A stretch of 64,000 nucleotides of DNA, from NCBI RefSeq assembly GCF_016026235.1, contig NZ_CP065613.1; one strand, written 5' to 3'. The notes beneath the pieces were generated by a model, which worked only from the letters and a program-made list of their open reading frames with translations, was not told the origin of the DNA and did no database searches. A program made the position numbers and the translations under genes. Origin of the DNA: Escherichia coli. GTDB lineage: Bacteria > Pseudomonadota > Gammaproteobacteria > Enterobacterales > Enterobacteriaceae. Positions 24,754 through 37,954 of the stretch are shown here, piece after piece. Positions within the stretch are counted from its first letter, which is position 1. Every line of letters begins with the position of its first letter.

Positions 24754-24761
24754 AAATAAGG

Positions 24762-24787
24762 ACGCTAGCGGATATCAGCGCTAGCGT
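24762..24787 (-). terminator. stem-loop between convergent yicH and the last gene of the sugar island; probable terminator of the island operon
   Basis: ACGCTAGCG-(8 nt loop)-CGCTAGCGT perfect 9-bp stem; on the minus strand it is followed by CCUUAUUUUUAC. Confidence 0.4.
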
Positions 24788-24796
24788 TCCCCGTTA

Positions 24797-25477
24797 TTAG
24801 CGCAAAATTCCATACTCACTGCACAATAACCATTTCACCGGTTCATCTTCTTCTATCGCAGGAAAACGTCCTCCCGGCTCAAGAAAATAGTTATCGTGTT
24901 GGTCATCATTTACCATCGAAATTTCCCAGCCGAGAACAAACGCTTTTTCCGCCCAGAAGCGATGATACAGACGCGGCGGCAGGCAAATGCCCTGCCCCGG
25001 CTTTAACACCAGCGTTTCACCAGGTTTCATGGTACGCCGCTGACCATCAACACTCACGGTAATGACTCGTTGATCATCACAGAGACTGGCTTCGTTGGCC
25101 CAGGCCAACTGCATGCATAAGTCTCCACCGCCCCGATTGAGGATATCTTCCATTTTGTGGGTGTGAAAATGCCAGGGAGTCTGCTGATCTTGTTGGATCT
25201 GCAACATTTTCTCAGCATACGGTTTTGGATATGCCGCCGACCCCAGCGCGCCGTTGCGCATCGTTAGCAGTGTTAGTCCCGTTTGGTTGAAATCACCACG
25301 ACCAAAATCGGTGATATCCCAACCGAGCTGTAAGTCGACCACTTCTTGCCAGTTATCCCGTTCCCGCTGCAGCCAGTCATCCACCGTAAAATAGGCGAAC
25401 TCTGGCAAACAAACGCGGAAGGTCTGCGCAATGGCATGTGCTTTATCAATAACATAATTAATTTGTGAACGTTTCAT
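24797..25477 (-). CDS. cupin-fold sugar isomerase-like protein (D-lyxose/D-mannose isomerase family-like)
   Basis: 226 aa from the ATG at 25477 (GGAGAA Shine-Dalgarno 6 nt upstream); MKRSQINYVIDKAHAIAQTF... with a His/Glu-rich cupin core (WHFHTHKMEDIL). The family call is a recalled similarity, not searched. Confidence 0.75.
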   Translation of the reverse strand: MKRSQINYVIDKAHAIAQTFRVCLPEFAYFTVDDWLQRERDNWQEVVDLQLGWDITDFGRGDFNQTGLTLLTMRNGALGSAAYPKPYAEKMLQIQQDQQTPWHFHTHKMEDILNRGGGDLCMQLAWANEASLCDDQRVITVSVDGQRRTMKPGETLVLKPGQGICLPPRLYHRFWAEKAFVLGWEISMVNDDQHDNYFLEPGGRFPAIEEDEPVKWLLCSEYGILR

Positions 25478-26390
25478 TGGCTTCTCCGTTGCGCATAGCA
25501 AGCCAGGCAGCGCCACGCATTCCGCTACTGTCGCCGTGCTGTGCTTTTACAATGGGAGTGGTGAATTGATCGGTGAAAACCAGTGGAGTGACTTCTGCGT
25601 TCAGATCGGTGATAAGCAGTTCCACATTCGAAAGCCCGCCGCCGATCACAATCACGCCAGGGTCAACAACATTAACGATGGTTGCGAGCGTGCGGGCAAG
25701 CTGTTGGCGAAAACGTGCCACCTGCTGCATGGCACAAGCATCACCACGTTGTGCCAGGGTGACAATCGCCGCAGGAGTGAGCAAGTTACCAGTCATCTGT
25801 TGATAGCGTTCACTAAAACCGCTGCCGGAAACAAACGACTCCACGCAGTTGTGTTTGCCGCAATAGCAACTGACTGATGGACCATCTTCCTGCTCCGTAT
25901 AGCCTGGCAACGTGATATGACCGCATTCGGCAGCATTTCCCCAGGCCCCTATAAACGGTCGTTGCTTGATGGCAATGCCACCGCCGCAGCCCGTACCAAG
26001 CGTAATACCAAATACCACGTCATAATCTTGCCCCGCACCGTCGCAAACTTCTGATAGCGCGAAACAGTTACCATCATTGGCTATCACCACCGGTTGCCCA
26101 AGCAATTGCTGCAAATCAGCCTGTAACGCATGACCGTTAATCACCTGAATATTCGCGTTTTTAATCAGGCCAGTGAGTGGCGAGATACTGCCGGGTAAGG
26201 CGATCCCTGTCAGCATCGGTCGTTGAACGTCCCGCCTAATCTGCTCGATAAGTGCCACAACGCATGAGACAAATTGTTGATATGTCGACTTTTGCGTCGG
26301 GCAGCGGTAACGGCGAATCTCCCAGCCATGCGCATCCATGACGACGGCGGCGATTTTGGTCCCACCAATATCCAACCCCAGATAGTGCAT
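25458..26390 (-). CDS. ROK-family sugar kinase
   Basis: ATG at 26390 (AAGGAA Shine-Dalgarno); MHYLGLDIGGTKIAAVVMD... N-terminal ATP-binding motif and a Cys/His zinc motif (CYCGKHNCVE) typical of the ROK family. Confidence 0.85.
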   Translation of the reverse strand: MHYLGLDIGGTKIAAVVMDAHGWEIRRYRCPTQKSTYQQFVSCVVALIEQIRRDVQRPMLTGIALPGSISPLTGLIKNANIQVINGHALQADLQQLLGQPVVIANDGNCFALSEVCDGAGQDYDVVFGITLGTGCGGGIAIKQRPFIGAWGNAAECGHITLPGYTEQEDGPSVSCYCGKHNCVESFVSGSGFSERYQQMTGNLLTPAAIVTLAQRGDACAMQQVARFRQQLARTLATIVNVVDPGVIVIGGGLSNVELLITDLNAEVTPLVFTDQFTTPIVKAQHGDSSGMRGAAWLAMRNGEANETFTN

Positions 26391-26437
26391 ATCTCGTTCC
26401 TTGTTGCGTAAAAGGCGGGTCACCCCGCCCTTCTGGC

Positions 26438-27298
26438 TTAGTACAGTGATGCTTTACCGAGCGAACCGAACAGTTTCATTTTGTGGCGAATGACTTCCCG
26501 CGCCGCGTTAATCGCATCCGGATAGATGACGTTCGGGTCCCACCAGCTCTCTTTAGCGAGAATTTCACGCACTTTCTGGAAATAGGCGTATTTCATATCG
26601 CTGGAGATATTGATTTTGCCGACGCCGAGCGTAACTGATTCAGCAATCTCCGCGTCCGGGTTTGCCGAACCACCGTGTAGTACCAGCGGAATATCAATAC
26701 GTCCGGCAATGTCGCGCAAAATGTTCATTTGCAGCTTCGGTTGCATCCCTTTTGGATAGATGCCATGCGCTGTACCAATCGCCACAGCCAGTGTGTCGGC
26801 ACCTGTACGAGCAATAAAATCGGCGGCCTGCGCCGGATCTGTGTAGGTCACTTGTGAAACACCACCTTCTACCGACGTTCCTGTTTGTCCGATGGTTCCC
26901 AGTTCACCTTCAACCGACACGCCAACCGCGTGAGCGAGGCGAACCACTTCTGCGGTCAGCGCCACGTTTTCTTCATACGGCAGCAGCGAACCGTCGATCA
27001 TTACTGAGGTAAATCCGCAGCGAATCGCACGCAAAACATGCTCTACAGAGGCACCATGATCGAGGTGCAGTACAAACGGGACTGGACTACGCTGGGTAAT
27101 TTCGCGAACGTGAGCGAAAAAGGCATCGCCCACAAAATCATGTTCGCTGGGATGGATGGCAATAATCGCCGGAGTATTTGTCGCTTCTGCTTCATCCACG
27201 ACTGCGCGAAGGAAACAGTTATCCGCCACATTAAATGCGCCAATGGCAAAGCCGTGCTGGCGGGTAGGTTGCAGTAATTCTTTCATCGAAACTAACAT
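26438..27298 (-). CDS. class II ketose-bisphosphate aldolase (GatY/KbaY/FbaA family), copy 1
   Basis: 286 aa with LHLDHGAS metal-binding motif and ...AIGTAHG.. / LVLHGGS motifs. Confidence 0.85.
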   Translation of the reverse strand: MLVSMKELLQPTRQHGFAIGAFNVADNCFLRAVVDEAEATNTPAIIAIHPSEHDFVGDAFFAHVREITQRSPVPFVLHLDHGASVEHVLRAIRCGFTSVMIDGSLLPYEENVALTAEVVRLAHAVGVSVEGELGTIGQTGTSVEGGVSQVTYTDPAQAADFIARTGADTLAVAIGTAHGIYPKGMQPKLQMNILRDIAGRIDIPLVLHGGSANPDAEIAESVTLGVGKINISSDMKYAYFQKVREILAKESWWDPNVIYPDAINAAREVIRHKMKLFGSLGKASLY

Positions 27299-27378
27299 GT
27301 TAAATCTCCAGTTTCAGCGTGTAGTCCGCCCTGCCGGTGCGTTATTGCACTGGCATAAAGGCCATGACAGAAAATGAA

Positions 27379-28230
27379 TCAGGCTTTGCCGATAGAGCCG
27401 CTCGCCTGTAAATACGGTGTAATCGCTTCTTCGAAGGCCAGTTCCATAGCTTTCAGCGCGTCCACCAGTTCAATGGATATATCGTGACAGAGGGTATGCA
27501 GGAGCGCGGATTTCCCCCGTTCAAAAATGGCCGCCCCCACGTTGATTTTTGCTACCCCCAGCGTCGTACAGAGCTGGAGCTGATCGAACGGCGTACCGCT
27601 ACCGCCATGTAATGCCAGAGGCACGCTCGAGCAGTGGAAAATCTCCGCCAGACGCTGAAAATCAATAGCAGGTACAACACCAGGCGCGTACATGCCGTGC
27701 GCCGTACCCACAGAGACAGCCAGTAGATCAATGCCTGTCTGCGCGATAAACGGTTCCACATCAGTGGGTTGCGTCATCATGTCTGCATTGGCGGCCTGGT
27801 CGTAACGCGGCGCATCTGCCAGATGGCCCAGTTCGCCTTCCACGCAGAGCTGCGCGCTGGCGGCGAGTTCCACCACCGCCCTGGTCTGGCGCACGTTTTC
27901 CTCCAGGGGAAAAGCAGAAGCATCAATCATTAATCCGCTGAAACCAGCACGAAACGCCTGACGAATACAGTCCGGATTTTTGCCATGATCAAGCGCCAGA
28001 GTGACCGGTACTGAAGCAGATTCCGCGAGCGTTTTAACCACTGCCGCCGCGACGGGTGCAGGAAAATGCGCCAGATGCCCCTGATATAGATTGAGAATGA
28101 TCGGAGCGCGATTCTTCTCCGCCACGCGGATAGCTGCGTAAGCACTTTCCAGATTCATACAGTTGATCGCCAGCAAGGCGTAATGTTCATGCCAGGCTTT
28201 CATCACCATACTTTTCATATCGGCAAACAT
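27379..28230 (-). CDS. class II ketose-bisphosphate aldolase, copy 2 (divergent paralog)
   Basis: 283 aa with LALDHGKN, SVGTAHG and LALHGGSG motifs; GGAGG Shine-Dalgarno upstream. Confidence 0.85.
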   Translation of the reverse strand: MFADMKSMVMKAWHEHYALLAINCMNLESAYAAIRVAEKNRAPIILNLYQGHLAHFPAPVAAAVVKTLAESASVPVTLALDHGKNPDCIRQAFRAGFSGLMIDASAFPLEENVRQTRAVVELAASAQLCVEGELGHLADAPRYDQAANADMMTQPTDVEPFIAQTGIDLLAVSVGTAHGMYAPGVVPAIDFQRLAEIFHCSSVPLALHGGSGTPFDQLQLCTTLGVAKINVGAAIFERGKSALLHTLCHDISIELVDALKAMELAFEEAITPYLQASGSIGKA

Positions 28231-28241
28231 AGGGCCTCCGG

Positions 28242-29333
28242 TTATTCGAGGGTGAAAGTGATCTCTTCATCTTTCAGCTTTTGATCGCTCAGTTCGTCAA
28301 ACTCTTCGTCGCGTTCCGTTACCGGTTTCTTCCAGAGTGAAAGCATCACGCCACAAATCACCGTGCCTATACCCAGCGCCAGGCAAAACAGCAGAGGATG
28401 GGTGAACAGAGGCACAACAAACATGCCGCCATGCGGAACCGGACTCTCCACGCCCCACACCATGATTAAGCCGCCCGCGACCGCCGATGCCACCACACAA
28501 GATCCCACTACTCGCAGCAGGTCACGCGCGGCGATCGGAATGACTCCTTCAGTGATCATGCAGATCCCCATCGGAAACGCGGCTTTCAGCGCCTCGCGCT
28601 CCGCACGGGTGTATTTATGGCGTGTCAGTAAGAACGAAAGTGTGATGCCAAACGGAGGGATGATTGAGCCGACAAATTTCACGGCTTCTGGTCCGTAGAC
28701 GCCACTGACCAGCAAGCCATCGGAAAACAGCGACATGGTTTTGTTGACCGGACCACCGAAATCGAAGGTTGCCATCGCGCCAAGTATGGCCCCCATCAGG
28801 AAGCGCGATCCGCCCTGCATCGACTCGAGCAAATGAATCAGTGCTTCTTGTAACCAGGCGATGGGTTTACCAATCAGCGTCATCATTAACAGCCCACCGA
28901 TAATGGTGCTTAATACCGGCAACACCATGATTGGCATGAGTCCTTGCATCGACTGCGGCAGGCGGATATAGCGTTTAAGTAGCAAAATGGTGTAGCCCAC
29001 CAGGAAACCACCCAACATACCGCCAATAAATCCGGTATGGATTTGCCCACAGAGAAAGCCGACAATCAGACCCGGGGCAAATCCGGGACGATCGGCAATA
29101 GAATAGGCAATTGCCGCGCTAATCAGCGGCACAATCAGCCCCATTCCCCAGCCGCCAATCTGATTAAGCATCCACGGGATTGTTCCTGTTTTTTCACCAA
29201 CATCTGTACCGCCAAGAACTTGCCCCAACGCAATACATATCCCGGCGGCCACAATAAGGGGTATCATCCACGAGATGCCGGTTAATAAATGTTTTTTAAT
29301 TTCCTGTGAAACCGGAATTTTATTGTCTTTCAT
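28242..29333 (-). CDS. PTS fructose-family EIIC permease component
   Basis: 363 aa, highly hydrophobic and polytopic, adjacent to the EIIB and EIIA genes. Confidence 0.85.
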   Translation of the reverse strand: MKDNKIPVSQEIKKHLLTGISWMIPLIVAAGICIALGQVLGGTDVGEKTGTIPWMLNQIGGWGMGLIVPLISAAIAYSIADRPGFAPGLIVGFLCGQIHTGFIGGMLGGFLVGYTILLLKRYIRLPQSMQGLMPIMVLPVLSTIIGGLLMMTLIGKPIAWLQEALIHLLESMQGGSRFLMGAILGAMATFDFGGPVNKTMSLFSDGLLVSGVYGPEAVKFVGSIIPPFGITLSFLLTRHKYTRAEREALKAAFPMGICMITEGVIPIAARDLLRVVGSCVVASAVAGGLIMVWGVESPVPHGGMFVVPLFTHPLLFCLALGIGTVICGVMLSLWKKPVTERDEEFDELSDQKLKDEEITFTLE

Positions 29334-29357
29334 ATTAAGATCCCTCCAGTATAAGGA

Positions 29358-29672
29358 TCATTTGTTTCCCAGTGATTTTTCGACCTTTTCAAGAAATTGA
29401 ACGGGCGATTTAATGACGATCTCTGTCTTTACTCGCACAATACGTTTATTGGTGAAGCGTTCTTCTCCTTTTATTTTCACATCTACAGCAAGAATCACGA
29501 CGTCAGCAGCAGAGATATCTGCCGCCTGTAATTCATTTTCTGTACCAATGGTTCCCTGGGTTTCAACTTTAATGGTATGGCCCAGAGCTTTTGCTCCTTT
29601 GATTAACTTTTCACGAGCAATATAGGTATGAGCAATACCCGCCGTACAGGCGGCAACACAGACAATATTCAT
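29358..29672 (-). CDS. PTS fructose-family EIIB component
   Basis: 104 aa MNIVCVAACTAGIAHTYIAREKL..., with the phospho-cysteine loop CxxGxAHT. Confidence 0.85.
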   Translation of the reverse strand: MNIVCVAACTAGIAHTYIAREKLIKGAKALGHTIKVETQGTIGTENELQAADISAADVVILAVDVKIKGEERFTNKRIVRVKTEIVIKSPVQFLEKVEKSLGNK

Positions 29673-29689
29673 GACATACTCCCTGTTAT

Positions 29690-30160
29690 TTAGCAGACAT
29701 CGGATTGTGCATACTGACTAAAGAGATCAATGATTTTTTGCGGACTCGTCTCAACTAACAATTGTTCTATGATGTCATCATCCGCCAGCGCGCCCGCGAC
29801 CTGGGAAAGTAAACGGATATGGGTGGTATTTTGATCTTCAAGACGTACCGCAAATAAAATAATACAGCGCACGCTACTACCATCCAGCGTTTCCCAAGGA
29901 ATATCCTGGCGGGTACGGCCAATTGCCAGCGTAGTATTAATTACCGCAGAAGATTTACCATGCGGGATCGCAATATGATTTTCAAAACCAGTCGAGCCTT
30001 CCGCTTCGCGCTGCCAGACATCTTTAATAAAGGTTTCCCGACAATCGATCGCACCATCTTTTTTGAGAAGATTAGTTAATTCTTCAATCGCCTCCGCTTT
30101 ATTCGTCGCTTGCATATCTAAAATAACGCGATTCGTATTCAGGATTTTTGTTATGTCCAT
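29690..30160 (-). CDS. PTS EIIA component (fructose/mannitol type)
   Basis: 156 aa with the phosphorylatable histidine context IAIPHGK. Confidence 0.85.
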   Translation of the reverse strand: MDITKILNTNRVILDMQATNKAEAIEELTNLLKKDGAIDCRETFIKDVWQREAEGSTGFENHIAIPHGKSSAVINTTLAIGRTRQDIPWETLDGSSVRCIILFAVRLEDQNTTHIRLLSQVAGALADDDIIEQLLVETSPQKIIDLFSQYAQSDVC

Positions 30161-30186
30161 TCGTCATACCTCATAAAATTCTGACA

Positions 30187-31740
30187 TTAAATTTCAACGA
30201 CCCGAGACGTCGCATGATGTAATTTTTCCGTAATCACCACTTCAGTGATCCGCTTAATATCGGCATCATTAAAAAAAGCGGTAACATAAGCGACCGGCAT
30301 AGTGACTGTAGGCAAATTAATGGTCGAAATAATCAGTTCGATATTGTCAGGCAAAACCTGTGATAAATTCGCTGCTGAAATAACATCAACAATCGTCCAT
30401 TCAGGAAATGCTCGCAGAATACGGCTTTTCAGTAGATGCGAAGTTCCGATTCCGGTTGAACAGACCAGTAATACACGTTTACGGGCAATTTGCCGCTCCA
30501 TCGCAGCCTGAAAATGAACGGTCAGGTAACCCACTTCATCCTCGCTCACTGCATTCTCACCCCAGGTTTTAAATACCTGATTCACCACATATTGCGTCAA
30601 CCGCCAGACATCCGCTAATTCTGCTTTAATATCTTCCAGCAATGGATTACGGATATGAATACGATAATTTAGTCGGTTAATCAGCGGTTTAATATGCACC
30701 AATAAGCCATCATATAATGCGCTGTCTTCACTAAAATCGCAGTCCACGATGTCACTGAATACCGTAATTAAACGCCAGGTAATAAGACGCGCTTCATTGC
30801 TGGCCTGCATATGTGAAATAATGCTAACATCTTTTTGTCCATCAATCGCCACACCTGATGAAATGATATATTGATAAATAAACCAGACTTCATCATCGGG
30901 CAATGTATGTGCAATTCGTTGTTCTATCTTATGAATCATCTGACTGGCAACATTAAAGATATTTTCATCATATTGCCTGGTTTGATCTTCTTCTCTTGAT
31001 AACGCATTCCCGTGCGTGTTGCGATACATCATAATAAGGATGTGAGTAAAAATGTTAACGTAATAAGGTTCTCCCAAAGACCAACTTAATTCATTTTCCA
31101 TATCCAGTAACAATGACTGGACAAATAACACCTCTTCTTCTCCAAAATAATGGACTAATGCTTTATAACTTCCGGGATCCAGACGTGAATACACGACACC
31201 TTGCGGCTCATTATGGTTAATAATGCCGTTAATCAGTAATGCCATTGCCTGTCGGACTTGCCCTTCACTACCTTCAATATGCGTACCACTTGGGCTGCGG
31301 ATCAACGATAACCCCAACGGCGCAAGCCAGGACTCAATTACTCTCAGGTCATTAACAATAGAGGCTCCGCTGATAAAGTAGCGTTCTGACAATTTACTGA
31401 TCGACGTTTCATTCGGTGTTTCACTTAATAACTGCGACGCTATTTTAACGCGCCTAGCATTATTCATTACACCATCAATCTCTTCACATTCTGCTCCCAA
31501 CAAATGATCAAGATGCAGCAAATCAGCAATATTCTCCGCACTTAACATCACACCCGCGCCAGCACGCTTCTCAACATTTATTCTCCATTGCCCCAGCCAT
31601 TGCTCAAGTAAACGTAAATCACGTTGAATGGTTTTTTCCGAAACATTTAAATAGCCGGCAATCTTAACAATAGTCGTATATTCCCTTCGAGGTAAAAGGA
31701 ATCGTAATAATCTGTTTTGTCGCGAGGTAATCATTTGCAT
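30187..31740 (-). CDS. PTS-regulated transcriptional activator (Mga/BglG-like; HTH plus PRD plus EIIB/EIIA-like domains)
   Basis: 517 aa; N-terminal HTH (YTTIVKIAGYLNVSEKTIQRDLRLLE), central PRD-like regions and a C-terminal PTS EIIB-like segment (RVLLVCSTGIGTSHLL). First gene of the island operon. Confidence 0.8.
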   Translation of the reverse strand: MQMITSRQNRLLRFLLPRREYTTIVKIAGYLNVSEKTIQRDLRLLEQWLGQWRINVEKRAGAGVMLSAENIADLLHLDHLLGAECEEIDGVMNNARRVKIASQLLSETPNETSISKLSERYFISGASIVNDLRVIESWLAPLGLSLIRSPSGTHIEGSEGQVRQAMALLINGIINHNEPQGVVYSRLDPGSYKALVHYFGEEEVLFVQSLLLDMENELSWSLGEPYYVNIFTHILIMMYRNTHGNALSREEDQTRQYDENIFNVASQMIHKIEQRIAHTLPDDEVWFIYQYIISSGVAIDGQKDVSIISHMQASNEARLITWRLITVFSDIVDCDFSEDSALYDGLLVHIKPLINRLNYRIHIRNPLLEDIKAELADVWRLTQYVVNQVFKTWGENAVSEDEVGYLTVHFQAAMERQIARKRVLLVCSTGIGTSHLLKSRILRAFPEWTIVDVISAANLSQVLPDNIELIISTINLPTVTMPVAYVTAFFNDADIKRITEVVITEKLHHATSRVVEI

Positions 31741-32034
31741 TTTTTACCCTTATCACAGATTAAGAAGCCCCATGAGGAAGAGCTTCAGTTGCCATCTCTG
31801 AGGGTAAATATAAAGCAGAATAATTTCACAACAATACTAAAATCTGTCCGTAATCCGGACAGTGATAAAACAAAGCAAGGCGGTTAAGGGATATTTTTCA
31901 GCACAGATCACATTTTCGCGATGAATAATCGTGATCATGCTCGCAAATACGATGGAAGAAATATTTATTACCAGATGTGAGATTATTTACCGGATACGAC
32001 ACGAAACCATTCGTATCCGGCATTCTTCAATAGA

Positions 32035-34353
32035 TTACAACGTAATTGTCAGCGCATTCCCTTGAGGAGTCACCACCAGTCCCTGCTCACTTTCAGCCTG
32101 CGAACCGCCTTGCAGACCATTTACTTTCACAACATTGCGCAAGCACAGCGTCCAGTTCTTCGCCTCGCCCGCACCAGTCACAGTAATCGTGTTGCCAGTA
32201 CGTGCTGCTTTTAAAGTAAAGATCACCGAACCGTCAGCAGCGGGCACTTCACAGACGGCTTCATGCCCGTCTTGCAGTTTAAAGAGCTGGAATGCCGTAC
32301 CTTCGTGCCACGCGTAATCGGGACGTTGATCGTTGTTGCCCAGCGCCAGTAGGGTGTTATCACGCACATAAACGGGCAGACTCAGGAAGCCGTGCTGCTG
32401 TTTATGCCAGCGACTACCGTCGAGCTCATCGTTGTGCCACAGGTGTGTCCAGCGACCTTCCGGCAAGTAGAACTGCACCTCGCCCTCCTCAGTGAACACC
32501 GGAGCAACCATCACGTTGTCGCCTAGCATGTATTGACGGTCAAGGTAATCACAAGCCGGATCGTCCGGGAACTCCATCATCATGGCCCGCATCATCGGCG
32601 TACCCCGCGCGTTCGCACGCGCAGCTTCACGATACAGATACGGCATCATGCGGCATTTCAGTTGCGTGAAGAAGCGCACCACATCACAGGACTCATCATC
32701 GTAGGCCCACGGCACACGATAAGATTTGCTGCCATGTAAACGACTATGGCTGGAGAGCAAACCAAACGCGCACCAGCGTTTGTAAACGTGCGCCGGCGCG
32801 GTATTCTCAAAGCCGCCGATATCGTGGCTCCAGAAGCCAAAACCTGAAAGGCCAATAGACAAACCACCGCGCAGGCTTTCCGCCATTGATTCGTAGTTAG
32901 CGTAACAGTCGCCACCCCAGTGTACCGGGAATTTCTGCGCACCGACGGAGGCCGAGCGGGCAAACAAGACAGCTTCTTCCTCACCAACGGTGTCCTTGAG
33001 CACGTTCCACACCAGTTCGTTGTAGATGTACGCATAATGGTTATGCATTTTCTGCGGATCGGAACCGTCAAACCACTGAACATCAGTTGGGATACGTTCG
33101 CCAAAGTCGGTCTTAAAGCAATCAACGCCCATCGCGACCAGACCTTTCAGTTTGTCGGCGTACCATTTGCAGGCATCCGGATTGGTAAAGTCATAAATCG
33201 CCAGACCTGGCTGCCATTTATCCCACTGCCATAGCGAACCGTCCGGGCGTTTGAGTAAATAGCCTTTCTCTTGTAACTCTTTAAAGACGGGGGATTTTTG
33301 ACCGATATAGGGGTTAATCCAGACGCAGATTTTCAGCCCTTTCGCTTTCAGGCGGCGGATCATCCCTTCCGGGTCAGGGAAAGTCAGCGGGTCCCACTCA
33401 AAATCGCACCACTGGAAGGCTTTCATCCAGAAACAGTCAAAGTGGAAAACATGCAGCGGCAGATTGCGTTCCGCCATACCATCGATAAAGCTGTTTACCG
33501 TCGCTTCGTCGTAGTTGGTGGTAAATGAAGTGGTTAGCCACAGGCCGAAGGACCACGCGGGCGGCAGCGCCGGACGACCAGTAAAGCGGGTATAACGATC
33601 AAGTACCGCTTTCGACGTCGGGCCGTCGATAACAAAGTATTCGAGATATTCACTCTCAACGCTGAACTGCACTTTGGAGACTTTCTCCGATCCCACTTCA
33701 AAAGAGACACACTGGGGATGATTGACCAGTACCCCATAACCACGGTTAGTCATGTAGAACGGGATATTTTTATACGCCTGTTCAGTACTTGTGCCGCCGT
33801 CCCGGTTCCAGGTCTCTACCGTCTGGCCATTGCGCACCAGGGCAGTAAAGCGCTCTCCCAGACCGTAAACTGTTTCGCCAACGCCAAGATCAAGCCGCTC
33901 AAACATATAATTGCGTTGATTATTCGTGTCCTGCACGTAGCCATTATTTTTCACCTGACTACCGGTAATACGTTCGCCGTTGCGCAGAAAATCCAGTGAC
34001 CAGAACTCACCTTTGCTGACACGCGCGCTTAAGTTGCCACTTTTAAACTCAGCATAACGTTCTGTGTTTTCGATTGTGACCTTCACGTCCTGCAAAATAT
34101 TGAGCGGATAATGAGGGCCGTTATTCAGCGCCCCCTGAAAATGCTCAATCCGCACCCCGACAATACCTTCCTGTGGGGAGAAAAAGCGCAGCGTAAATAA
34201 AGGCGTGTCAAGCTGCCATGTACGTTCACGTACATCACGGGGGGCAGCATAGACCACCATTTCATTACCCTGCTGTTCAACCTCGAACACCTGAAGCGGG
34301 TGAATCAAATTGAGGCCAGGTTGAATCAACCAGTTTCCATCGCTAATTTTCAT
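32035..34353 (-). CDS. yicI: alpha-xylosidase (GH31)
   Basis: 772 aa [38 protein letters not shown]... with the GH31 catalytic region (WINPY..., KTDFGE). Confidence 0.95.
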
Positions 34354-36037: not shown

Positions 36038-36132
36038 GGAAGATCGTCGTCTCCGGTGAGGCGGCTGGACTTCAAATCCAGTTGGGGCCGCCAGCGGTCC
36101 CGGGCAGGTTCGACTCCTGTGATCTTCCGCCA
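36038..36132 (+). tRNA. selC: tRNA-Sec (selenocysteine tRNA)
   Basis: GGAAGATCGTCGTCTCCGGTGAGGCGGCTGGACTTCAAATCCAGT...GATCTTCCGCCA: 95 nt, long acceptor stem and extended variable arm, TCA anticodon in the loop (CTTCAAATC), genomically encoded CCA. Confidence 0.9.
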
Positions 36133-36769: not shown

Positions 36770-37954
36770 ATGCAAAAAACGGCTACCACTCCATCAAAAA
36801 TACTTGATCTCACTGCCGCGGCATTTTTACTTGTCGCCTTTCTGACGGGTATTGCGGGCGCTCTTCAGACTCCTACCCTAAGTATATTCCTCGCAGATGA
36901 ACTGAAAGCCCGTCCTATAATGGTAGGTTTTTTCTTCACCGGTAGCGCTATTATGGGAATTCTGGTCAGTCAATTTCTGGCAAGGCACTCCGATAAACAA
37001 GGCGACCGTAAATTACTGATTCTGCTATGTTGCTTATTTGGAGTGCTGGCCTGCACGCTTTTTGCGTGGAATCGCAACTACTTCATTCTGCTCTCAACGG
37101 GCGTACTTCTGAGTAGTTTTGCTTCCACCGCAAACCCGCAAATGTTCGCCCTCGCCCGTGAACACGCCGATAGAACAGGCCGTGAGACGGTCATGTTCAG
37201 TACATTTTTACGTGCTCAGATCTCGCTTGCCTGGGTTATCGGGCCACCGCTCGCTTATGAACTGGCAATGGGATTTAGTTTTAAAGTGATGTATCTCACC
37301 GCTGCCATCGCATTTGTTGTTTGCGGGCTGATAGTCTGGTTGTTTTTGCCATCAATACAAAGAAATATTCCTGTCGTTACCCAACCCGTAGAAATTTTAC
37401 CCTCCATCCATAGAAAGCGAGATACGCGGCTACTTTTTGTGGTTTGTTCAATGATGTGGGCGGCGAATAATCTCTACATGATAAATATGCCGCTATTTAT
37501 TATTGATGAACTGCATCTAACCGATAAACTGGCTGGAGAAATGATTGGTATCGCTGCCGGTCTGGAAATTCCGATGATGTTAATCGCAGGCTATTACATG
37601 AAACGTATTGGCAAGCGACTATTAATGCTCATTGCTATCGTGAGTGGAATGTGTTTTTACGCCAGCGTACTCATGGCGACGACTCCGGCGGTTGAGCTGG
37701 AATTGCAAATTCTTAATGCCATCTTCCTTGGTATTCTCTGTGGTATCGGCATGCTTTATTTTCAGGACTTGATGCCTGAAAAAATAGGCTCTGCGACAAC
37801 GTTATATGCAAATACTTCACGCGTCGGCTGGATTATCGCCGGCTCTGTTGACGGAATTATGGTTGAAATCTGGAGCTACCATGCGTTGTTCTGGCTGGCG
37901 ATAGGGATGTTGGGTATTGCGATGATTTGCCTGCTGTTTATTAAAGATATTTAG
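36770..37954 (+). CDS. setC: sugar efflux transporter SetC (MFS)
   Basis: 394 aa MQKTATTPSKILDLTAAAFLLVAFLTGIAGALQTPTLSIFLADELKARP... Confidence 0.9.
   Translation: MQKTATTPSKILDLTAAAFLLVAFLTGIAGALQTPTLSIFLADELKARPIMVGFFFTGSAIMGILVSQFLARHSDKQGDRKLLILLCCLFGVLACTLFAWNRNYFILLSTGVLLSSFASTANPQMFALAREHADRTGRETVMFSTFLRAQISLAWVIGPPLAYELAMGFSFKVMYLTAAIAFVVCGLIVWLFLPSIQRNIPVVTQPVEILPSIHRKRDTRLLFVVCSMMWAANNLYMINMPLFIIDELHLTDKLAGEMIGIAAGLEIPMMLIAGYYMKRIGKRLLMLIAIVSGMCFYASVLMATTPAVELELQILNAIFLGILCGIGMLYFQDLMPEKIGSATTLYANTSRVGWIIAGSVDGIMVEIWSYHALFWLAIGMLGIAMICLLFIKDI

Follow-up and report, generated by a model that had tools for sequence, protein, structure and literature searches.

Two palindromes in the intergenic region between yicI and the regulator gene frzR were analysed in a stretch of Escherichia coli DNA of 64,000 nt (contig NZ_CP065613.1; hereafter the window). 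They are probably unrelated elements, both of ordinary kinds: a hairpin at the end of the yicJI transcript and a probable activator operator fused to the promoter of the frz operon. The region (31741-32034, 294 bp, 38% G+C) is bounded by the yicI stop codon (TTA at 32035-32037, minus strand) and by the ATG of the 517-aa regulator gene at 31740 (minus strand). The 7-bp palindrome, CTGTCCG-TAATC-CGGACAG, has its arms at 31844-31850 and 31856-31862 and a spacer of 5 nt. The 10-bp inverted repeat, CCGGATACGA-N11-TCGTATCCGG, has its arms at 31990-31999 and 32011-32020 and ends 14 nt from the yicI stop. An earlier description made from the letters alone (hereafter the sequence-only reading) had given both palindromes with these sequences and positions and had taken the AT-rich region for the promoter region of an accessory gene cluster adjoining yicI. 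Both points were confirmed. The features on which the argument rests are as follows.

31844-31862, no strand assigned: 7-bp palindrome CTGTCCG-N5-CGGACAG, with the conserved core TGTCC-N7-GGACA at 31845-31861; candidate operator, centre near -54.
31831-31841, minus strand: invariant block TTTAGTATTGT, which follows the palindrome after 3 nt; its TTG starts the putative -35.
31829-31834, minus strand: putative -35 element TTGTTG; TTGnnn occupies the corresponding position in all 21 loci examined.
31807-31812, minus strand: putative -10 element TATATT; the spacer to the -35 is 16 nt in Escherichia and 17 nt in the other genera.
31988-32022, minus strand: yicI-proximal hairpin, made of the perfect 10-bp repeat and two more pairs in the minus-strand RNA.
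30187-31740, minus strand: frzR, with HTH_11, Mga, two PRD and an EIIB-like domain (PTS_IIB) in Pfam.
32035-34353, minus strand: yicI (alpha-xylosidase), the stop codon of which lies 14 nt from the hairpin.

Chance frequencies were obtained from shuffles of the region that preserved its dinucleotides. Perfect stems of 10 bp or more with loops of 3-12 nt arose in 0.25% of the shuffles and stems of 7 bp or more in 17.7%; 47 such 7-bp stems are present in the window. Given these rates, only the 10-bp repeat is significant by itself. The 7-bp palindrome is at chance level and takes its meaning only from its conservation in other genomes. An Rfam scan of 31400-32400 at a permissive E-value returned nothing relevant.

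The region upstream of frzR was first aligned in 23 Enterobacteriaceae sequences. Eight distant loci, whose FrzR proteins are 54-73% identical, were then added from Klebsiella, Mangrovibacter, Pectobacterium, Brenneria, Erwinia, Pantoea, Vibrio and Celerinatantimonas. The composite motif TGTCC-N7/8-GGAC[A/T]-N3-TTTAGTATTG was present upstream of frzR in 31/31 of these gammaproteobacterial sequences (29 loci), that is in the eight genera just named and in Escherichia, Citrobacter, Kosakonia, Phytobacter, Superficieibacter and Buttiauxella, in differing genomic contexts and over a range of FrzR identity of 54-99%. The block TTTAGTATTG was identical in all 31 sequences and its eleventh base was T except in Erwinia persicina. 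The core pairs (T:A, G:C, T:A, C:G and C:G) were essentially invariant, with zero covariation. The spacer between them was of 8 nt in 27 sequences and of 7 nt in Escherichia and Erwinia; it had 16 distinct sequences, in which pairing was not kept. The outermost C:G pair of the 7-bp palindrome was found only in the lineage of the window (ST38 and MOD1 have 6 bp); in Superficieibacter and K. aerogenes the palindrome is perfect over 18 bp. At 2/2 Firmicutes loci, whose homologues are 39-42% identical and carry an extra EIIA domain, the design recurs with N10. In Peribacillus, ATGTCC-N10-GGACA-TAT-TTTAGTATG faces the phosphotransferase system (PTS) genes and a degenerate copy precedes the regulator gene; in Paenibacillus, TGACC-N10-GGACA-TAT-TTTAGTATTT precedes the regulator gene. 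The 64-kb window contains one copy of the motif, and none was found upstream of yicJ, where a second FrzR target was looked for.

Downstream of the palindrome, a -10-like hexamer of the form TAnnnT (TATATT, TAGATT, TACATT, TATCTT or TATGCT) accompanied the putative -35 in 21 of 21 loci. No promoter was reported in the E. coli region by a sigma-70 scan, because the -35 is weak (3/6 match); the promoter was recovered by phylogenetic footprinting, and the scan does report TTGTGA-17-TATATT in Superficieibacter. So weak a -35 would fit an activator-dependent promoter. Transcription is predicted to start near 31800 (minus strand), which would place the centre of the palindrome (31853) near -54. Two further conserved blocks lie upstream.

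31930-31945, minus-strand reading: block A, CRP-like TGCGA-N6-TCACG, in which TTTGnGAnCnnnnTCAC is invariant in the 23 Enterobacteriaceae sequences.
31891-31916, minus strand: block B, AAAATGTGATCTGTGCTGAAAAATAT (AAAATGTGATC...), with a CRP-like left half-site.

The match of block A to the CRP consensus is 8/10 in the window, where such matches are as frequent as expected by chance (24 found, 25 expected), and 9/10 in Superficieibacter (TGTGA-N6-TCACT). In block B, TGTGATC was invariant in the 23 sequences and was also found in Klebsiella aerogenes, Mangrovibacter, Erwinia and Brenneria. These upstream CRP-like sites may add catabolite control.

Two variations were noted around the motif. In Pectobacterium, a third half-site overlaps the -35 (TGTCC-N8-GGACA-N11-TGTCC, about 144-173 nt before the ATG), at a place where other genera have TGTTG or TGTCG; the regulator may contact three half-sites. 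In five Citrobacter species, an insertion of 120-200 bp resembling enterobacterial repetitive intergenic consensus/intergenic repeat unit (ERIC/IRU) elements (...GAATCCCCTGAGCGTACATAAGTACGTGACTGGGGTGAGCG...) separates the promoter from the frzR ATG, and the operator is shifted to -254 to -332.

FrzR is the sole regulator encoded in the module, the ROK protein having no helix-turn-helix (HTH), and its N-terminus resembles AtxA and AcpB. The CAT RNA-binding domain was not found in FrzR, and only its PRD part matched LicT and GlcT. To judge by these domains, the RefSeq label 'BglG family transcription antiterminator' is misleading for FrzR, because the protein has no CAT domain and has an HTH_11 and Mga N-terminus. 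The traits of an activator operator were found together: a dyad-symmetric site just upstream of a weak -35, flanks conserved to the -35, co-occurrence with the regulator and a regulator of HTH/Mga and PRD type. By this comparison, the 7-bp palindrome is most likely the E. coli form of a FrzR operator, TGTCC-N7/8-GGACA. The sequence-only reading had proposed that the 10-bp repeat could be a binding site of a regulator. The better candidate for such a site is the 7-bp palindrome, with its conserved TGTCC-N7/8-GGACA. A FrzR dimer would bind the palindrome with its centre near -54 and with contacts that extend as far as the -35, and bound FrzR would activate its whole operon, frzR included. FrzR would be controlled through PTS phosphorylation, on the analogy of MtlR, ManR and LicR.

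A close parallel is MtlR of Bacillus subtilis. It recognizes a short palindrome with conserved flanks that reach to within 7 bp of the -35; it is autoregulated and is controlled by phosphorylation through HPr and enzyme II (EII), and a class II-type mode of activation has been proposed for it (PMC3217849). The frz site is like PmtlA and PmtlR in its palindrome with conserved flanks near a weak -35 (at 7 bp in mtl and 10 bp in frz), in the autoregulation proposed here, in the second operator before a divergent regulator gene (in Peribacillus) and in its HTH/Mga/PRD/EIIB-like regulator. It differs in the half-sites, which are TGTCC/GGACA in frz and TTGTCACA/TGTGCCAA in mtl. The hosts of frz are Gram-negative and have CRP-like sites instead of catabolite responsive elements (cre). 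Unlike its Firmicutes homologues (about 650-690 aa), the gammaproteobacterial FrzR (517 aa) has no C-terminal EIIA domain.

Other readings of the 7-bp palindrome were weighed on the same data. It could be a small intrinsic terminator in the yicI-sense RNA (the stem, then AUUUUAGUAUUGUUG) that insulates the frz promoter from yicJI read-through. It is the only terminator-like site flagged in 31500-32300 (7 pairs, 5 of them G:C, and a 5-nt loop), it folds at -12.4 kcal/mol (z = -2.2), its place immediately before the putative -35 would suit an insulator, and the spacer shorter by one base in Escherichia yields a stem of 6-7 bp. However, 27 of the 31 sequences have a stem of 5 bp and a loop of 8 nt unless the spacer happens to pair, and in 21 of the 31 the hairpin alone has a free energy of -5 to -6.5 kcal/mol. 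The scan did not mark the motif as terminator-like in Kosakonia, Citrobacter or Superficieibacter. Its arms are kept as sequence, with no covariation and with spacers that vary without keeping pairs, and it is equally conserved where there is no upstream yicI (Kosakonia, Pectobacterium, Vibrio and Pantoea). With such stems also arising in 17.7% of the shuffles, a terminator seems improbable. Binding by a protein other than FrzR, for instance a global regulator of carbon use or a repressor whose gene lies elsewhere, is unlikely too. Arms that are invariant from E. coli to Vibrio while FrzR is only 54-60% identical are more typical of a conserved global factor, and CRP-like blocks lie nearby; against this, the motif moves with the frzR-PTS module across contexts and into Firmicutes, which have neither CRP nor Cra, it occurs once in the window with no copy upstream of yicJ, and no other regulator is encoded in the module, its ROK protein having no HTH. 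The second Peribacillus copy stands before the regulator gene, as autoregulation predicts and as in PmtlR (PMC3217849). Antitermination of the BglG/LicT type, in which the regulator would bind an RNA resembling a ribonucleic antiterminator (RAT) that overlaps the small hairpin, agrees with the RefSeq annotation, with the two PRD domains and with a hairpin and T-run upstream of the gene. It is largely refuted by the domain content of FrzR (no CAT domain, and an N-terminus of HTH_11 and Mga as in AtxA and AcpB); the hairpin lies upstream of the conserved -35 and -10, outside the predicted leader, and its structure is not conserved, which leaves this mechanism hardly credible.

The 10-bp repeat is core DNA. 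In MG1655 and other frz-less genomes, yicH and yicI are separated by a 52-bp spacer, TAA-ACATCAATCTCG-CCGGGTACG-ACTCAGA-CGTACCCGG-CATTCCATCAATAGAT-TTA. Alignment of K-12 with the window gave the same hairpin with another loop and with one stem pair changed, G:C in K-12 and A:T in the window. This pair 5 is G:C in genomes without frz and A:T in frz-positive E. coli; the frz-positive cryptic Escherichia MOD1-EC7003 has an intermediate, A.C on the plus strand, which is G.U in the yicI-sense RNA, and a second wobble of this kind. The arms were otherwise invariant in 5 frz-positive and 9 frz-negative E. coli genomes sampled, save for one outer C to T. The repeat is thus allelic, and its alleles track the absence or presence of frz in 5,420 of 5,426 genomes. 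Both hairpin alleles are single-copy (median of one place per genome), no repetitive extragenic palindromic (REP) feature is annotated at the hairpin in MG1655, and the repeat is absent from frz loci that do not adjoin yicI.

In the window, the hairpin of the yicI-sense (minus-strand) RNA has a free energy of -20.4 kcal/mol (z = -4.2), and that of the plus strand -15.5 kcal/mol. Where frz is missing and the converging yicH and yicI both run into the hairpin, the stability is symmetric (-20.4 and -20.9 kcal/mol); in frz-positive genomes the yicI-sense strand is favoured (-18.0 to -20.4 against -7.0 to -15.5 kcal/mol). A strong hairpin was also found right after the yicI stop in 12 of 13 other-genus loci folded, the stop of Phytobacter ursingii not having been located, and directly after the stop in Klebsiella aerogenes. 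Its form is REP-like in most Citrobacter; a canonical stem followed by a T-run is present in Citrobacter MGH106, in two Superficieibacter species and in Klebsiella aerogenes. The hairpin of the window has the stable G+C-rich stem after a gene that marks an intrinsic terminator and has no U-tract 3' of the stem on either strand (tails UAAAUAAUCUC on the minus strand and CAUUCUUCAAUAG on the plus strand). It is not reported by the terminator scan.

On balance, the repeat is likely to be the 3'-end hairpin of yicJI rather than an insertion scar or a regulator site. It is not the site of the regulator, because it is absent from frz loci away from yicI, and a proposal of the sequence-only reading to that effect falls. 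In the yicI-sense RNA it would act as a weak terminator without U-tract, as a barrier to 3' exonucleases, or both. The absence of a U-tract makes it probably a leaky terminator, and some read-through from yicI into frz is likely. The sequence-only reading had also suggested that it terminates or insulates the yicJI transcript; a role at the transcript end is plausible, given the hairpins and terminators at the same position elsewhere, and efficient insulation is doubtful for want of a U-tract. Like Rho-independent and bidirectional terminators, it is a G+C-rich hairpin 14 nt past a stop codon, symmetric and shared by the convergent yicH and yicI in frz-less genomes. It lacks their U-tract on both strands, and canonical terminators stand at the same position in other genera. 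REP elements and bacterial interspersed mosaic elements (BIMEs), which have reportedly been found to stabilize upstream mRNA (Newbury, Higgins and colleagues, 1987), share with it an imperfect palindrome, ends of the form GCCGGAT...ATCCGG and a place just after a gene, and REP-like hairpins occur at this position in Citrobacter. The E. coli hairpin differs from them in being single-copy and not annotated as REP, and its internal sequence departs from the REP consensus.

The REP-like ends, together with the missing U-tract, would also suit a functionless relic (a decayed REP-like element or leftover symmetry) or a site acting as DNA, for gyrase, IHF or recombination, and with the low diversity of E. 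coli the invariant arms in 14 genomes are weak evidence of selection. Such a relic or DNA site is nevertheless rather unlikely in view of the compensatory replacement of G:C by A:T, whose G.U intermediate is a pair in the yicI-sense RNA only, of the asymmetric stability confined to frz-positive genomes, of the single-copy state without REP annotation in MG1655 and of the canonical terminators that four other species have at this place. A palindrome could instead be the scar or attachment site of an island, the repeat having been made by, or used for, the integration of frz. The frz-specific DNA does reach exactly to the distal arm of the 10-bp repeat, just 30% of genomes carry frz and the G+C content of the frzR-EIIA end is low (40-45%, 29500-31999, against 52-56% in the rest of frz and its flanks). 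Yet the complete hairpin is already present in the empty site, the ends have no direct or terminal inverted repeats, integrase, transposase or tRNA, and the yicJ-yicI-frz synteny recurs in other genera and in a cryptic Escherichia, so that an insertion scar is very unlikely.

The alignment of this junction with the empty yicH-yicI site of K-12, which the sequence-only reading had called for, set the boundary at 31989/31990: the frz-specific DNA ends at 31989 and the hairpin (31990-32020) is shared core DNA that abuts it. Of the idea that one palindrome marks the insertion boundary, this much stands, that the 10-bp repeat is exactly at the edge of the frz-specific DNA; it is neither a mark nor a product of insertion, since the whole hairpin pre-exists in K-12 and in frz-less genomes. 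The presence of both palindromes in K-12 had been named as a finding that would count against the reading; the 10-bp repeat is present there and the 7-bp palindrome is not. In K-12, 12 nt (ACATCAATCTCG) stand in place of 7.2 kb, and they have no counterpart in the window. The genes of the cluster are only metabolic, PTS and regulatory, its G+C content is unremarkable apart from the frzR-EIIA end, and the nearby selC is 4 kb away, beyond yicJ. Calling the cluster an 'island' is questionable, given the ends without mobility genes, flanking repeats or tRNA and an arrangement that recurs in five other genera.

This arrangement, yicJ-yicI-frzR in the same orientation, was found in ten Citrobacter species, Phytobacter ursingii, two Superficieibacter species and Klebsiella aerogenes, and also in Mangrovibacter (with one gene between) and in a cryptic Escherichia lineage. 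Across it, the identities are 87-89% for yicI and 72-79% for FrzR. Such identities are, in our judgement, compatible with vertical descent. That yicJI and frz were linked from early on, and that many E. coli then lost frz, is no less plausible than insertion. In two frz-less strains, FDAARGOS_433 and WCHEC035125, a K-12-type hairpin is separated from the yicI stop by the frz-positive type of sequence (CATTCT-TCAAT); such a mix suggests recombination breakpoints very close to the hairpin.

Taken together, the observations can be joined in one model, which we put forward tentatively, as somewhat short of an even bet. In this model, TGTCC-N8-GGACA-N3-TTTAGTATTG would be the operator of the FrzR family fused to the -35, the first to be defined for an AtxA/Mga-like PRD activator in Gram-negatives; frz would be an old partner of yicJI lost by 70% of E. 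coli, and the yicI hairpin would be symmetric and bidirectional after this loss, or before frz was present. Several points weigh against the readings of the operator and the hairpin given further above. The invariant arms do not reveal the binding protein, and a global factor could bind in place of FrzR. The half-site spacing of N7 rather than N8 in Escherichia is not explained by the operator reading. In E. coli, ATTTTAG comes after the palindrome and a terminator-like site is flagged there, so that it could also act as RNA. The 8/10 CRP-like match is at chance frequency, and the support for the two CRP-like blocks comes from conservation only. As for the hairpin, without a U-tract it fails the canonical definition of a terminator, and its strand asymmetry is built on few alleles, one frz-negative variant (GTCGGG) wobbling in the opposite way and favouring the plus strand.

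If true, the model would give a direct handle on the switching-on of an operon for fitness and invasion of extraintestinal pathogenic E. coli (ExPEC). A bounded candidate operator and promoter (31807-31862, with TGTCC, GGACA and the natural N7 and N8 variants) makes regulation by FrzR testable, and the motif can be used as a search pattern for further FrzR targets, for example behind the reported link to type 1 fimbriae. The result on the hairpin corrects the boundary of the island and makes yicJI and frz an old syntenic pair, which bears on a possible co-transcription of the two operons. Two things are apparently new: a precise model of the operator and promoter, whose conservation is unusually deep, and the correction to the boundary and history of frz. 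The locus itself is known, and neither element is a new mechanism.

The cluster is the known frz operon, and the locus of the window is a member of it with no difference at the operon level. Its extent and a further hairpin at its other end are given here.

24754-31989, minus strand: frz-specific DNA, absent from K-12-type genomes; it includes the promoter region.
24760-24789, no strand assigned: second hairpin (GGACGCTAGCG-N8-CGCTAGCGTCC-like), located between the stop codons of yicH and of the last frz gene.

After the regulator gene come EIIA, EIIB, EIIC, two class II aldolases, ROK kinase and lyxose-isomerase/cupin, and then the convergent yicH. The second hairpin has a free energy of -19.8 kcal/mol on the plus strand and -19.3 kcal/mol on the minus strand, and in frz-positive genomes it replaces the shared hairpin as the transcript end on the yicH side. 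The frz operon was reportedly described in the avian ExPEC strain BEN2908 by Rouquet et al. (2009, J Bacteriol 191:4427). It is a published fitness and invasion operon of ExPEC and avian pathogenic E. coli (APEC). The intergenic form with frz was found in 1,603 of 5,426 complete E. coli genomes (about 30%) and the K-12-type yicH-yicI junction in 3,817, the two forms together accounting for 5,420. The operon is listed as genomic region GR27 (yicH..yicI, 7,283 bp; PMC12928451). The gene content and the position between yicH and yicI correspond to those in the window, where the interval is about 7.28 kb. In the literature examined, the inducing sugar and the regulation of frz are not given. The literature searched, which did not reach the primary frz and yicJI papers, contains no mention of a palindrome in the frz promoter or of the yicI hairpin.

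The leader of frzR includes the following feature.

31743-31752, minus strand: ribosome-binding region of frzR, TAAGGGTAAA, in which TAAGGGT is invariant in 22 sequences.

A long leader fold that would sequester the ribosome-binding site was considered and dropped as a conserved structure: z was -3.6 in E. coli and -0.1 to -0.7 in other genera, and RNAalifold gave no consensus pairs on the frzR leader. Just after the putative -10, TTTACCCT (31801-31808) is complementary to AGGGTAAA in the ribosome-binding site (31743-31750); this would matter only for a transcript that begins upstream of 31808. Within the leader (31765-31800, minus strand), an outer pairing CAGAGAU/AAUCUGUG (CACGGAUU/AAUCUGUG in other genera) can enclose an inner hairpin GAAGCUC.../...GGGGCUUC (GGAGC/GCUUC elsewhere). 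This two-level structure recurs in the minimum free energy folds of Escherichia, Kosakonia and Phytobacter; in Citrobacter, the inner hairpin alone is found. In strains 25DN and JCM 5491, a natural 12-bp deletion (GATTAAGAAGCC, plus strand; window 31758-31769) takes away part of the leader hairpin just before the ribosome-binding site.

Several strains carry rearrangements at the locus. Strain GN04171 has lost the 5' end of frzR and all of the promoter region up to about 31970 through an IS1 element, and it keeps the frz-type yicI hairpin. In FDAARGOS_943, an element of the IS66 family interrupts yicI, and the EIIC and EIIA genes of frz are annotated as pseudogenes; the strain is nonetheless 100% identical to the 601-bp query (window 31600-32200). 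In CUPF12, yicI is interrupted by ISEc52. Upstream of yicJ in the window, tRNA-Sec (selC) is followed by an open reading frame of 394 aa on the plus strand (36038-36132 and 36770-37954), which looks like the start of a selC-associated island.

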